DNA from: a virus
Length of the DNA stretch: 64,000 bases
IMG/VR virus record: IMGVR_UViG_3300025096_003363
Coordinates: 1 to 64,000 of that record
Direction: 5' to 3' (one strand)
Position 1 is the first letter of the stretch, and every line of letters begins with the position of its first letter. The notes under the pieces were generated by a model. It was not told the DNA's origin, did no database searches, and saw only the letters and a list, made by a program, of their open reading frames with translations. The translations under genes and the position numbers were made by a program. This document shows positions 3,654 through 54,449 of the stretch, piece after piece.

Positions 3654-5192
3654 TTAGAAGTACACTGACTGAGAAGCCGGAGTAAACGCAGTACCGAGTC
3701 CCTGAACAATAACTACATGGTAGTAGAGATCAGCCCCGAAGATGTTGTCAACAACACCATAACGAGTAAGCAAGCCAACACGTGGCGCGAAGTCGTTAGG
3801 ACCAATAGTTCTCTGAACCATGACAGGAATGTAAGGACAATAAATGATACCAGTGTCGTAGAACTCAGGACCTTTGTAACCAAGCAACGCATACTCGATG
3901 TTAGCAGTACCATTTGAGTCATACTGATTAACATTAGGATTGTTGTAGTAACTAGAGTTCTGAACCTCTGTTCTGGTATCACGGTAAACGTTGAATCTCC
4001 CACCGAGTGAACCAACCTTTGCAATACCAACAGGCTGCGTGTTAACATCACCCTGCACAGGCACCCACTGAAATTCAGGGAGCATCTCGAGGATGGCGCA
4101 AACACGAGGAGTAGCAACAACAAAGTTAGCTGCTCCACGTCTGTTACGTACGGCGATACGATTGGCTTCGATGATAAGACGTTGATAGAAGTCCCTATTA
4201 CGCTCGACCATCCAACGACCATCTGCAGAAGCAGGTGACCAGAGGGAGTAGCCTTTGTTCAGTCCAGCTCCGAGAGCCGACTGGATCATTCTCATGAGCA
4301 TTTCACGGTCGATCTCAGCCTGAATCTCATACGACATAGCGTTTGTGATCTCGGCGTCAATATCGATACCATTCATGTTCTTAAGATCTTGCTCAAGTTC
4401 GACAGACCAACGTGCGCCAAGACGGCGTGTGCCGGCCTCAACTGCTGTTTTCTCGAACTTAACCTCGACCTGAGGAATGTTACCAGTAATCTCGAAAGCG
4501 GAAAGAATCTGAGCGACACCTTTATCTTGCGCAGTGAAGGCCCAAGTTGAACCATCAGGAGTACCACTCAACCGTGTCGAAGACGTACCGGTGAAGCGGG
4601 TATCAAGAAGTTGGTATCCAAGTTCATCACCCGGAAGACCGGCAGCGCCATCATATATCTTGTTATCTCCTGCAATCGTTGGATGCGAACCAGGCGTAAA
4701 TCCTGGACCTGTAGTACCAGATCCAATAGGATTGGTAGTAGCATCACCAGTACCATCAGTACCGGCTCCAAGATAAGTAGACTCGTAAGCATAACGAAGA
4801 GCAAAAGCAAGTCCAACAGGACCTGACATAGGCTGGACACCAACGATTTCGTTAGTGATAAGCTCAGGGAACGTACGACGAATCATCGGGATAAGCACTT
4901 TAGGAAGACGAGCGTCACCAGGAGCATAATTATCATTCGACCCGGTAGTACCAGGCGGAGAGAATATGTTCGAAGTAGAAGCACCGCTACCGAAGGCTCC
5001 ACCGTGACCGGCGGAGTTTGCTTCTTCAATACACCACTTTTCCTGGTTCTCAAGAAGAATGGCGGTATTTAAACGGGTATGATCGTCTTCAATGGGCTTA
5101 ACACTATCAGAAGAATATTCAAGAACAGGTGCCCACTTCTCAAGAAGTGTATCTGCTCTATCTCTATCTATAAATGACTGTGGTTTGTTCAT
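3654..5192 (-). CDS. gp23: Major capsid protein (T4 gp23-like)
   Basis: LLEKWAPVL, ILLENQ, GVQPMSGPVGLAFALR, ELEQDLKNMNGIDIDAE, YCPYIP and TRYG motifs; putative maturation site IEE/A at residue 57. Confidence 0.97.
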   Translation of the reverse strand: MNKPQSFIDRDRADTLLEKWAPVLEYSSDSVKPIEDDHTRLNTAILLENQEKWCIEEANSAGHGGAFGSGASTSNIFSPPGTTGSNDNYAPGDARLPKVLIPMIRRTFPELITNEIVGVQPMSGPVGLAFALRYAYESTYLGAGTDGTGDATTNPIGSGTTGPGFTPGSHPTIAGDNKIYDGAAGLPGDELGYQLLDTRFTGTSSTRLSGTPDGSTWAFTAQDKGVAQILSAFEITGNIPQVEVKFEKTAVEAGTRRLGARWSVELEQDLKNMNGIDIDAEITNAMSYEIQAEIDREMLMRMIQSALGAGLNKGYSLWSPASADGRWMVERNRDFYQRLIIEANRIAVRNRRGAANFVVATPRVCAILEMLPEFQWVPVQGDVNTQPVGIAKVGSLGGRFNVYRDTRTEVQNSSYYNNPNVNQYDSNGTANIEYALLGYKGPEFYDTGIIYCPYIPVMVQRTIGPNDFAPRVGLLTRYGVVDNIFGADLYYHVVIVQGLGTAFTPASQSVYF

Positions 5193-6133: not shown

Positions 6134-6135
6134 GT

Positions 6136-6282
6136 TTAAAAGAGTGGTTTTTCAGTTGCGCGATTGATTCTTCTTGTAATCTTATCTTCAATTACGCTCT
6201 TTAAATATTTATGTGCCTGGGCATAATTTTTCTTAGAAATATGCTCAATGACCTTAATAATCTTTAATTTTTCTTTAGCCAT
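6136..6282 (-). CDS. Small basic 48-aa prohead-associated protein (below the ORF-track cut-off)
   Basis: MAKEKLKIIKVIEHISKKNYAQAHKYLKSVIEDKITRRINRATEKPLF*. It fills the gp21-gp22 gap and has TAAATA 5 nt upstream. Confidence 0.75.
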   Translation of the reverse strand: MAKEKLKIIKVIEHISKKNYAQAHKYLKSVIEDKITRRINRATEKPLF

Positions 6283-6293
6283 AATATTATTTA

Positions 6294-6959
6294 TTATATA
6301 GATTTAATAAAGCTAAGGATTCTGTCACGTAAAAAGGTATCAATCTCCTTTTTAGGGAGCTTTTCTAGTGATTTTTCGAAATTTTCGTATACTTCGGTGT
6401 ATTTATCATTACCAACAAGCACCCATTGCTTTGATTCTAAGATTCCATTTACAAATGCCTTGGGGTAGGATGGGTCTGCAACACAGTCAATAGCTACAAG
6501 TTTCATATTTTTTACAGTACTATGATCGCTACTCTCTTCAAGGGTTCCTAATGCGCGTGAAGACATACCAACTTTTACACCGTCGTTAATAAGAGATCTA
6601 ACTATTTGACCGCAGGGTGTAGATAAAACTTTTGATTTACCATAAAACACATTCCCGTCTTGCTTTAATTCGGTTACCATGTGGCAGGCTCTTTCTAGAT
6701 CAACATCTGCTGTAGTTGGGTGATTTAGCTCTCCCATTGCGCGACCAGGCTTGATCATCTCTTCAACATATCGTGTTGCTTCTCTCTCTAACTCGTCTAA
6801 TGGATAAAGCCGGTTGTTTTTGTTTACACCCTCAGCCATCATATAAGGGCCTTTTATATATAAATTGGAAGGGGAGTTTCTATCTACTTCTTCTTCAATG
6901 TATTCGAACTCATCGTTCACATCGGGTTTTTCCACAACCAAGTTAAGTTTTAACGCCAT
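6294..6959 (-). CDS. gp21: Prohead protease (gp21-like)
   Basis: NKNNRLYP, GELNHP, GMSSRALG and DCVADPS motifs. Confidence 0.95.
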   Translation of the reverse strand: MALKLNLVVEKPDVNDEFEYIEEEVDRNSPSNLYIKGPYMMAEGVNKNNRLYPLDELEREATRYVEEMIKPGRAMGELNHPTTADVDLERACHMVTELKQDGNVFYGKSKVLSTPCGQIVRSLINDGVKVGMSSRALGTLEESSDHSTVKNMKLVAIDCVADPSYPKAFVNGILESKQWVLVGNDKYTEVYENFEKSLEKLPKKEIDTFLRDRILSFIKSI

Positions 6960-52241: not shown

Positions 52242-52598
52242 ATGGCAGACAAAAAACCAATTAAGACAATTATTGATCACATCGGCCGGACTGTCGTAGG
52301 TTCAGTCACAAAAGAGGATACTAAGAACATTACTCTTTTTAACCCTGTGATTATTCACGTACAACCAGACTCCCAATCCGGTCAATTACAAGTACAATCG
52401 TTTCCGTATATCTTTATGGAGTTCCTAAAGGATAAGGACAAGAACAACTGGACCTTTAATAAGGCAGCCATTAGTACGTCTGATGTTGAGCTAGACGAGA
52501 GAATCATTACTCAGTACGAAAATATCAATAATCCTCAGCCGCCTATTCAAGAAACTTCAGCAGAAGAGCCAGAAGTAATTAAGCTCTTTGATGATTAA
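52242..52598 (+). CDS. Hypothetical protein (Sm-like beta pattern)
   Basis: 118-aa ORF directly before hsp20. Confidence 0.65.
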   Translation: MADKKPIKTIIDHIGRTVVGSVTKEDTKNITLFNPVIIHVQPDSQSGQLQVQSFPYIFMEFLKDKDKNNWTFNKAAISTSDVELDERIITQYENINNPQPPIQETSAEEPEVIKLFDD

Positions 52599-52635
52599 TT
52601 GCTAAAATACGCATTGTGTAATAAATAATTTTACT

Positions 52636-53046
52636 ATGAAACTAACTAAGTACACACACAACCCAATCGCAGAAATCGAAAGAGCCTTTGATGGTTTTTT
52701 CAATCTGACACCAGTCTTCCACCAGTTGGAAGAAGTATATAAAACAGGAGATCAAGTTCGATTTGCATCGGATGAAGATGCACTAAGCGTGCAAATTGAT
52801 CTGCCAGGAGTCACAAAAGAGAATTTAGATCTTTCTACTGACACCGATCAACGCGAGGTCTATATTAAGGCAAAGCGTCAAGTAAAAGCCCATGACGGGG
52901 AAAAGGAACAAACCTATAATAGGTCGTTCTCAGTTGGAAGAGAGTTTGATCTTAACAAGATTGATTTCACTTATGTCAATGGAGTCCTTGAGGTCGATGT
53001 ACCTCGTAGGAAGAAAGAAGAATATATTAAAACATATAAAGTTTAA
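52636..53046 (+). CDS. Small heat-shock protein Hsp20
   Basis: IDLPGVTKE, YNRSF and YVNGVLEVDVP alpha-crystallin motifs. Confidence 0.9.
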   Translation: MKLTKYTHNPIAEIERAFDGFFNLTPVFHQLEEVYKTGDQVRFASDEDALSVQIDLPGVTKENLDLSTDTDQREVYIKAKRQVKAHDGEKEQTYNRSFSVGREFDLNKIDFTYVNGVLEVDVPRRKKEEYIKTYKV

Positions 53047-53075
53047 CAATTAAATGGGCTTAGCTAGCCCAACCC

Positions 53076-53242
53076 GGGTGTGCCTGAATAAACATTTTAA
53101 GCAAGAGTGTTAAGGGGGCTGCAACTTACATGGAGGGTCAACTGACTATTATGTGTAAGGGAACGGAGTACAAGTAGGGAAAAAGATGAAACTGCATCTT
53201 GCCCACCCGAAAGTTGGAGGTAACCAGAAAATCCTCTCACCC
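53076..53242 (+). ncRNA. Candidate structured non-coding RNA (multi-stem)
   Basis: Closing stem GGGTG/CACCC encloses four hairpins. G-U pairs favour the + strand. No plausible ORF; followed by a terminator. Confidence 0.6.
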
Positions 53243-53251
53243 ACCTTTTTT

Positions 53252-53277
53252 AAAAGCCCCGAAAGGGGCTTTTTTTA
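53252..53277 (+). terminator. Rho-independent terminator
   Basis: AAAAGCCCC-GAAA-GGGGCTTTTTTT. Confidence 0.93.
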
Positions 53278-53305
53278 TTGAATTTAAGGACGTATATTAT
53301 ATAAT
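53278..53305 (+). promoter_or_regulatory. Sigma70-type promoter of uvsX
   Basis: TTGAAT-N16-TATAAT, 7 nt before the ATG at 53313. Confidence 0.7.
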
Positions 53306-53312
53306 ACTTTAT

Positions 53313-54449
53313 ATGGATAAAGATATTACTAGTGCATTGGATGCTATTGATAAAGTAAACCCCTTCGCAACTTATTTAGATAACAATTCACTCAGTCACG
53401 TTGGATCATGGATTGATACAGGATCTTATGTGCTAAACGCAATTATTTCCGGTTCAATTCACGGCGGAATACCTAAAGGTAGAGTAACAGTACTTGCCGG
53501 TGAGTCGATGACAGGTAAGTCGCTTTTTGTCCAAAAAATTCTAGCCAAGGCCCAGGAGGACGGGCTCGTCCCTGTTATCTTTGATACTGAAAATGCTATT
53601 GACCCGGAAGGAGCTGCAAGATTAGGGCTAGATATTAGCAAAGTTAAATATGTTCCTTGTACTAGTATTGAACAAACTCGTAATTCACTGTATAAGTTTC
53701 TTATGGTGGTAAAAGAAAAGGGACTAGAGGGTAAGTTTATTGTAGCTATTGACTCACTAGCTAATCTTCAATCAGAGCTTGAACTGTCGCGGATGAGTAA
53801 AGACAGTGTTAGTTCAGATATGGGTACAAAAGCGCGCGCAATGAAGACATTAATGCAAACTTGTACAAATTTAGGGTCAGTTACACAAACCACTATCCTA
53901 TGTACTAATCATGTCTATGATGACCCAACAGCTCTGTTTCCTTCTATTGAAAAAAATATGCCAGGTGGTAAATCATGCATTTATCTTCCATCAGTAACAG
54001 TTCAACTAGCACGCAAGCCAATGAAATCAGATGGCGGTAAGACTGTTGATGGGGAATTGGCAGTTGGTCAGAAAAAATACGCTGGAATTATTATTAGAGC
54101 CCTTACGCGTAAAAATAGATTTATTAAACAGTACCTTGAAGGTGAAATATACCTTTCATTTGCTTCTGGACTTGATCGCTACTATGGATTAGTTGATCTG
54201 GCCGTTGGTGTTGGTGCAGTAGTTCAAACTGGAGCAACTTATCAGCTTGAAGATGGTACTAAGCTAGGCTATTATAAGAATTGGAGGAAGGATGTTAAAC
54301 TTTGGGAAGAGACTATTCTTCCAAAACTTGAAGAACGAATTAAAGATGAGTGGTCTTATAGTAATAAAGAAGAAGAGCCACCTGATGAATTAGGTTTAGA
54401 TGGTTTAGATGATTTAATTAATGAAAAAGAAACTAGTACTGACTCTTAG
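53313..54449 (+). CDS. uvsX: RecA-like recombinase UvsX
   Basis: IDTGSYVLN, AGESMTGKS, FDTENA, IDSL, NHVY and GG motifs. Start corrected to 53313 because the longer ORF runs through the terminator. Confidence 0.93.
   Translation: MDKDITSALDAIDKVNPFATYLDNNSLSHVGSWIDTGSYVLNAIISGSIHGGIPKGRVTVLAGESMTGKSLFVQKILAKAQEDGLVPVIFDTENAIDPEGAARLGLDISKVKYVPCTSIEQTRNSLYKFLMVVKEKGLEGKFIVAIDSLANLQSELELSRMSKDSVSSDMGTKARAMKTLMQTCTNLGSVTQTTILCTNHVYDDPTALFPSIEKNMPGGKSCIYLPSVTVQLARKPMKSDGGKTVDGELAVGQKKYAGIIIRALTRKNRFIKQYLEGEIYLSFASGLDRYYGLVDLAVGVGAVVQTGATYQLEDGTKLGYYKNWRKDVKLWEETILPKLEERIKDEWSYSNKEEEPPDELGLDGLDDLINEKETSTDS

Follow-up and report, generated by a model that had tools for sequence, protein, structure and literature searches.

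A divergent manA-family RNA, probably carried as the 3′ tail of a late hsp20 message, in a viral contig

Positions 53055-53247 (+ strand) of a 64,000-nt stretch of viral DNA (hereafter the window), which is part of a 98.8-kb IMG/VR virus contig, encode, as judged by covariance-model alignment, a divergent member of the manA RNA family (RF01745). In the reading that we favour, at a probability of about 0.65, this RNA is the 3′ tail of a late hsp20 message and an autonomous folded module, and not a switch for the gene downstream. The manA family is not new, having stood as an orphan 'riboswitch candidate' since 2010; the RNA of the window is an uncatalogued, remodelled variant. The Rfam model and its threshold miss the whole subgroup to which it belongs, with about 40 members in IMG/VR.

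The genes of the window include gp43, hsp20 and uvsX. On the + strand, an ORF of 118 aa (52242-52598) is followed by hsp20 (small heat-shock protein, 136 aa; 52636-53046 in the ORF list), a gap of 266 nt, and uvsX (RecA-like recombinase; 53313-54449, ORF with ATG at 53313). The Hsp20 protein is 89-96% identical to those of the relatives, and Pfam HSP20 was matched for the homologues in manA loci, and the tblastn hits of uvsX, at about 33% identity, are cyanophage genes annotated as UvsX/RecA-like. The gap (53047-53312, counted to the uvsX ATG) is indeed the longest non-coding stretch of the window, as the preliminary description of this DNA had claimed, since the next apparent gap (6134-6293) contains a small minus-strand ORF (6134-6282), and the RNA within it is, as also noted there, richer in GC than its surroundings (47% for 53055-53247 against 35% for the window). 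A small ORF of 31 aa (53186-53281) was considered as a coding sequence and rejected, because 1-nt indels break it in relatives. The blastn search of the stretch against 50,697 phage records gave no match.

The Rfam scan of the window, with matches reported by E-value, gave manA as the sole match in 64 kb, positions 1-192 of the model aligning on 53055-53247 with 46.9 bits (E-value 5e-11 locally and 7e-9 window-wide). RF01745 is thus matched from end to end, but below its gathering threshold of 55.2 bits, and the scan of the window at the Rfam gathering thresholds gave no match. Canonical manA copies of phages, collected from viral contigs through the motif GGGNGTGNCTGAATAA, score 120-197 bits, so that the RNA of the window represents a clearly separated, divergent branch; a second variant, type 2 (loci L036, L037, where it occupies 1249-1433, L039 and L040), scores 47.4 bits. 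The relation to manA, suggested beforehand as a possibility, was strengthened by the reciprocal search: the covariance model R1, for which 23 close relatives of the window RNA served as the only input, detected type 2 at 42-45 bits, a third type at 33-41 bits and 13 canonical manA copies (E-values 1e-9 to 8e-5), and gave no match in 41 related loci without the RNA.

All parts of the manA core were found in the window, that is, the 5′ hairpin, the closing stem P1, the CUGAAUAA/UAAGG helix, the 3′ hairpin GGUA..CAG..AAUCC and the ACCUU tail. They align at high posterior probability, and the core helices are 92-100% paired across the family, with compensatory changes. The order of helices (5′ hairpin, closing stem, hairpins 2, 4 and 5) is the same, and the signatures GGGnGUGnCUGAAUAA, UAAGG, the ACUG-containing loop, GGUAnnCAGnAAUCC and CnCCCACCUU are shared. 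The carriers are likewise marine T4-like phages, although the UvsX of the phage studied here is only about 33% identical to that of cyanomyoviruses; in four cyanophage genomes chosen through UvsX matches, no manA was found. Linkage to hsp20/ibpA recurs as well, ibpA being listed among the manA-associated genes (Weinberg et al. 2010, PMC2864571).

All the stems listed in the preliminary description were found in place, and the minimum free energy fold of the + strand contains every one of them plus the terminator hairpin at 53252-53273. The multi-stem character of the RNA therefore stands; its length, previously given as about 170 nt, has to be corrected to about 193 nt (53055-53247) according to the covariance models. 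The 5′ hairpin P0 (53055-53071), a match to the manA model, consists of UGGGCU/AGCCCA, including the stem GGGCU/AGCCC at 53056-53070, with the loop UAGCU, and contains the self-complementary UAGCUA at 53061-53066. The multi-branch core (53076-53242) is closed by P1, formed by GGGUG (53076-53080) and CACCC (53238-53242). In P2 (53083-53116), which represents the manA signature GGGnGUGnCUGAAUAA ... UAAGG, outer CC/GG pairs and an internal loop, UGAAUAA/UAAG, are followed by the inner stem of AACAUUUU (53091-53098) with AGAGUGUU (53104-53111). The hairpin P4 (53175-53205; P8 of the cryo-EM preprint cited below) has the inner stem AAGAUG (53183-53188)/CAUCUU (53195-53200), flanked by GGG/CCC, and the loop AAACUG (53189-53194), while P5 (53216-53237; P9 of the preprint) has the stem GGAGG (53216-53220)/CCUCU (53233-53237) and a 12-nt loop, UAACCAGAAAAU. 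CAG in the P5 loop (53225-53227) is complementary to CUG in the P4 loop (53192-53194). The element ends with the conserved single-stranded tail ACCUU (53243-53247), equal to the last five positions of the manA model.

The largest departure from canonical manA lies between P2 and P4. The domain of three hairpins with GUGGUG, GNRA and ACCA loops and a closing stem of its own, which is retained in the canonical and type-3 copies and which the manA model skips through local ends in the window, is replaced here by one long, irregular hairpin of roughly 48 nt (53119-53166) that carries none of these loops. It is composed of the base CUG(C)/(A)CGG, the middle UACAU/GUGUA and the tip GGUC-AACU-GACU, and gives a z-score of -2.33 when folded alone. 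The stem of CUUACAU (53125-53131) with GUGUAAG (53153-53159) around GGUC/GACU, as described beforehand, is present in the window, but among the relatives only its upper 5 bp are conserved. The outer stem of hairpin 4 is also remodelled relative to manA. An alternative pairing of CAACUU with AAGUUG, put forward earlier, was rejected as a conserved helix, since it would cross the P3 base stem and meets G-A mismatches in several relatives. From a MAFFT alignment, RNAalifold proposes a pairing of AACU in the P4 loop with AGUU (53213-53216), both strands of which are invariant.

Folding energy agreed with the earlier preference for the + strand (z-score -2.18 against -1.04 for the - strand, terminator included). 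The core without the terminator gave a z-score of -1.13, and 26 of 200 shuffled sequences folded equally well. Folding energy by itself is thus weak evidence, the z-scores of the core not being significant, and the case rests on the comparison with relatives.

For this comparison, base pairs were counted on a covariance-model alignment of the family, which is fitted to the model and therefore biased towards the proposed structure; in it, 91.6% of the cells pair and 38 of the 48 pairs have changed on both sides. The covariation score on this model-fitted alignment was 0.337, against 0.109 in shuffled alignments (none of 500 reached 0.337) and 0.04-0.06 in slid controls, in favour of the fold drawn in the preliminary description. 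Both sides have changed in all six pairs of P0, which in type 2 reads GGAGGGU/GCCCUCC with the loop UGAUC. P1 and P5 are each 100% paired with three of five pairs changed on both sides; P1 appears as GUGAG/CUCAC in type 2, GGAUG/CAUCC in type 3 and GGGAG/CUCCC in canonical copies, and it is also 100% paired, with GGGUG/CACCC, GUGAG/CUCAC and GGAUG/CAUCC, in an unfitted MAFFT alignment. Type 2 carries the compensatory AUACG/CGUAU and AC/GU in P2. The inner stem and loop of P4 are invariant across 23 type-1 sequences (those of the window type), and its outer pairs are poorly supported (69% paired across the family). Within the 53119-53166 hairpin, the second base pair varies as U-G, C-G and U-A in type 1, and at the matching place type 2 has a hairpin of unrelated sequence and equal shape (z-score -2.76 folded alone). 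Since the plain MAFFT alignment fails to match the central parts of types 1 and 2, RNAalifold recovered from it no more than P1, P5 and fragments, and the covariance-model alignment was used in its place. From these compensatory changes the fold is established, with P0, P1, P2 and P5 well supported and the outer stem of P4 weak; independent changes are few in P3 and in the outer helix of P4.

Two further forms of the element were noted on other contigs. The third type (L213, 3193-3437; L232, 1126-1370, - strand) has the closing stem GGAUG/CAUCC, keeps the canonical GUGGUG and ACCA hairpins, and is followed within a few bases on the 3′ side by a tRNA-Asn gene, so that RNase P would set its 3′ end. 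On the minus strand of a 195-kb contig (L133, about 4774-4789), a much shorter manA-like element (19.9 bits) consists of a GGGUGUGACUGAAUAA start and a GUAGGUAAUCAGUAAUCCUAC hairpin with little between; it lies in a tRNA-rich region and is preceded by a hairpin with the UAGCUA loop.

The T4-type late promoter is TATAAATA. A matching box, AATAAATA (52620-52627, + strand), lies 8 nt before the ATG of hsp20 in the window, and (T/A)ATAAATA is found at a fixed distance from the hsp20 ATG in 25 hsp20-bearing relatives and the window, with one exception, L057, which carries the degenerate ACTAAATA in its place. We infer that AATAAATA is active as a promoter. The RNA starts 8 nt downstream of the hsp20 stop codon, and since it has no promoter of its own, it is best read as the 3′ tail of the hsp20 message. 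In the RNA libraries of two studies, contigs cross from the 3′ end of hsp20 into the RNA (X17, 53014-53219; X18, 53037-53232), including the last 10-33 nt of hsp20, and a contig of a third study (X16, 53098-53239) lies within the RNA. Contigs cannot show starts, ends or a single spanning molecule, and RNA libraries can hold DNA; the bridging contigs fit co-transcription of hsp20 and the RNA, which we infer, and are no proof of one molecule. In four RNA runs 53271-53565 is without coverage, and three contigs end at 53219-53239; these ends were set aside as evidence of termination, since contigs cannot show ends. One contig of RNA run X18, at a depth of 2, joins 52597, at the end of the 118-aa ORF, to 53014, skipping hsp20 up to its last 33 nt, and continues into the RNA, a hint, too thin to rely on, of a strain without hsp20 but with the RNA.

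The RNA is followed by an intrinsic terminator (53252-53277, + strand) with a 9-bp stem, AAAAGCCCC/GGGGCUUUU, a GAAA loop and a U-tract. It is kept in all the RNA-bearing relatives with compensatory variants of the stem, such as CCUCC/GGAGG in L022; it also stands after hsp20 in every arrangement, relatives without the RNA, such as L009, included. The promoter of uvsX directly behind it, likewise proposed before, was confirmed as a sigma-70-like sequence (53278-53305, + strand; TTGAAT, 16 nt, TATAAT; ATG 7 nt after the -10 box), and TTGAAn-N16/17-TATAAT is conserved in relatives with the RNA, without the RNA and without hsp20.

Put together, the late promoter AATAAATA at 52620 would start a monocistronic hsp20 message late in infection, the manA-type RNA would be transcribed as its 3′ end and closed by the terminator at 53252-53277, and uvsX would be read separately from its own early-type promoter behind this terminator. 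The RNA would then be an autonomous folded module, either attached to the hsp20 mRNA or cut from it. The preliminary description had called it a stand-alone or processed non-coding RNA rather than a uvsX leader. Its second half holds, since neither the terminator nor the uvsX promoter depends on the RNA and a switch platform is absent, as described below. The term 'stand-alone' has to be narrowed, because without a promoter of its own it would mean a 3′-UTR-borne or 3′-processed RNA of the hsp20 message. In its location between a stop codon and the gene's own terminator, its lack of an own promoter and its conservation independent of the coding sequence, the RNA resembles the structured 3′-UTR-borne RNAs of bacterial mRNAs, which act as sRNAs or stabilisers and use the terminator of the mRNA, and from which it differs in being a large multi-branch domain instead of a short Hfq-type sRNA.

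Alternatively, the RNA could be an independent small-RNA gene, with its own promoter in the end of hsp20 or in the spacer, the product being a stand-alone, terminator-ended sRNA of the manA type. Canonical manA starts at its own promoter: among 74 distinct upstream regions of canonical copies, nearly all contain TTGACA-N17-TATAAT, with its end about 5-6 nt ahead of P0. In L124, L134, L163 and L167 (not L149) a terminator-like hairpin 23-27 nt after the RNA completes a promoter-RNA-terminator unit. In some lineages the RNA may moreover have a transcription start of its own, as boxes are found just ahead of P0: TATAAATT at a distance of 4 nt in type 2, and TATAAT or TAAAAT at 5 nt in several relatives of type 1. 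In the window, however, the TTGACA-N17-TATAAT promoter is missing, P0 being preceded only by AACAAT without a -35 box; type-1 sequences do not share the motif before P0, the closest promoters predicted are inside hsp20, at a distance of more than 130 nt from the RNA, and the RNA-library contigs continue from hsp20 into the RNA. We consider an independent gene unlikely for the window. In canonical loci (L089-L205), the -35 box is often located in the loop of a GC-rich hairpin with a U-tract, about 40 nt upstream, so that a single element combines the terminator of the upstream gene with the manA promoter.

Attachment to hsp20 is also apparent from the distribution of the RNA. Among loci fetched through UvsX, it was present in 25 of the 35 with hsp20 and in none of about 37 without hsp20, and wherever upstream DNA was available, hsp20 stood directly 5′ of it. 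The gene after the terminator varies among relatives, being either uvsX or an ORF of 105 aa. These loci show five arrangements: (1) hsp20, RNA, terminator, uvsX; (2) hsp20, RNA, terminator, 105-aa ORF, uvsX; (3) hsp20, terminator, uvsX; (4) hsp20, terminator, 105-aa ORF, uvsX; and (5) neither hsp20 nor RNA. Phages that are nearly identical in other respects differ in whether the 105-aa ORF, with its own TATAAATA box (L034 and L018, both at 1175-1492), stands between terminator and uvsX, and this polymorphism is not tied to that of the RNA. Among canonical manA copies, hsp20 is located 3′ of five and 5′ of four; on the cyanophage-type contigs L124, L134, L149, L163 and L167 canonical manA precedes hsp20, the order opposite to that of the window. 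This co-travel of RNA and hsp20, recurring in other phage lineages, points to where a function might be sought.

The type-1 RNAs are on average 90% identical to that of the window, whereas hsp20 agrees at 70% of its third codon positions, a value that falls to 50% in L042 and L044 with the RNA still at 90%; this comparison with synonymous sites places the RNA under purifying selection. In the type-2 loci, by contrast, hsp20 is 90-93% identical to the window in nucleotides and the RNA 59%. Such a pair of values argues for cassette exchange and not for divergence in place, so that, on these comparisons, both the linkage to hsp20 and the behaviour as a cassette are established. In two loci without hsp20 (L029, 1440-1480, and L026), the same GCCCC-GAAA-GGGGC terminator directly follows the 118-aa ORF, and GGUCACCAGCCCAC in front of it resembles the RNA 3′ end; it may be the deletion scar of an hsp20-RNA cassette.

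Exchange of this kind would also be expected of a selfish or decaying cassette, useless to the phage and carried along with hsp20, for which one could cite the polymorphism of RNA presence among phages with flanks more than 90% identical as well as the swap of a 59%-identical version behind a near-identical hsp20. Yet the RNA is conserved at 90% next to synonymous sites at 70%, its helices are maintained by compensatory changes, and indels in relatives disrupt the small ORF at 53186-53281; we hold a useless cassette to be very unlikely.

A riboswitch-like leader, in which ligand sensing by the RNA would control termination at 53252-53277 and thereby uvsX or the 105-aa ORF, is suggested by the Rfam classification of manA as cis-regulatory and by the order of folded domain, terminator and gene, which resembles that of a transcriptional riboswitch. 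We searched the locus and its relatives for an expression platform, and found neither an overlap with the sensor nor a conserved antiterminator: the terminator stem begins 9 nt after the end of P1 with zero overlap, and the sole possible antiterminator, GGGGGCU (53114-53120), is GGGAC in most relatives. By this comparison, a switch platform is absent. Moreover, the terminator is kept behind hsp20 in RNA-less relatives, the conserved uvsX promoter lies downstream of it, and the downstream gene differs among relatives, all of which makes this explanation highly improbable. The position of the RNA at the 3′ end of a gene, before a terminator, differs from that of canonical manA as a potential 5′ UTR. 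The canonical copies are followed by genes as different as gp32, transaldolase, ThyX, a phosphomannomutase-like gene, hsp20 and PurS, and preceded by regA, DUF1825 or hsp20, and such widely different neighbours argue against a metabolite-specific switch. A terminator-like hairpin follows 15 of 84 canonical copies, and a tRNA gene starts 0-14 nt after the RNA in 6 of 84, so that in a quarter of the family, as in the window RNA, the fold is directly followed by a defined 3′ end. This quarter and the 3′-end location behind a late promoter both argue for an autonomous family and against a switch.

A tRNA-like or tmRNA-like RNA, with P5 as T-arm, P1 as acceptor stem and ACC as the end, has a negligible chance: the 3′ strand of the closing stem and ACCUU do come after a 5-bp hairpin, and some manA-family copies adjoin tRNA genes, but ARAGORN found no tRNA or tmRNA in the whole window, the Rfam tRNA and tmRNA models gave no match even at an E-value of 10, the 'T-loop' has 12 nt without the T-loop consensus, and the entire element aligns with manA from end to end.

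With regard to what an autonomous module on the hsp20 message might do, canonical manA RNAs are reported from cryo-EM to form, in vitro, decamers based on pentamers as well as a 60-mer cage (bioRxiv 10.64898/2026.07.01.735769), through the kissing loops L5-L7′ and L8-L9′ and, in some variants, a GNRA contact (same preprint). On the Rfam structure, the GUGGUG, GNRA and ACCA loops correspond to L5, L6 and L7, and the loops of P4 and P5 to L8 and L9; a contact between the loops of the two 3′ hairpins had been marked 'pseudoknot?' by Weinberg et al. 2010 (PMC2864571). Complementarity of at least 4 bp between the P4 and P5 loops is found in 66% of the family, against 9% of shuffled sequences. The window RNA retains the helices of the monomer core and the complementarity of L8 with L9, but the latter is limited to 3 bp (CUG with CAG) instead of 4-5, as in the canonical CUGU:ACAG, and type 2 has none; the other pentamer contacts L5, L6 and L7 are absent. 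With the L5-L7′ interface gone and L8-L9′ cut to 3 bp, self-assembly of the variant is doubtful. The preprint covers in vitro work only. As a natural, trimmed variant lacking one of the two described assembly interfaces, it offers a ready-made test of the contacts.

The P0 loops fall into two classes, GACG in 66 of 85 canonical copies and, in the remainder, mostly self-complementary sequences: UGAUCA and GAUC in a canonical subset, GAUC in type 2, and UAGCUA in the window, which here differs from the GACG of most canonical copies. A palindrome is found in 6 of 10 P0 loop types against 2.2 expected (P about 0.002, calculated post hoc), the loops other than GACG being enriched in palindromes across the family; GAGCUC in P0 of L153 and L200 may be stem rather than loop. 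Palindromic P0 loops could make a two-fold contact. We therefore consider, tentatively and with more doubt than belief, that the module would self-associate through loop-loop contacts, with capping of the hsp20 mRNA at its 3′ end as a by-product, a reading of self-association that draws on the in vitro work with canonical manA only. It is quite unlikely, but conceivable, that the hsp20-linked manA variants are swappable RNA 'assembly cassettes', still attached to the late hsp20 message or freed from its 3′ end, and multimerising via a symmetric kissing contact of the palindromic P0 loop together with CUG:CAG into particles that would work with or concentrate Hsp20 late in infection. If so, the same fold would be 5′-terminal in cyanophages and 3′-terminal here because its job would be architectural and not regulatory.

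Several start codons in this phage group lie only 7-9 nt behind a promoter box without a Shine-Dalgarno sequence (window positions 52620-52638, 53300-53315 and, on the - strand, 6270-6295; L034, 1160-1180). In front of uvsX this box is TATAAT, and hsp20, the ORF of 105 aa and that at 6134-6282 have AATAAATA or TATAAATA, an arrangement that suggests leaderless or near-leaderless messages.
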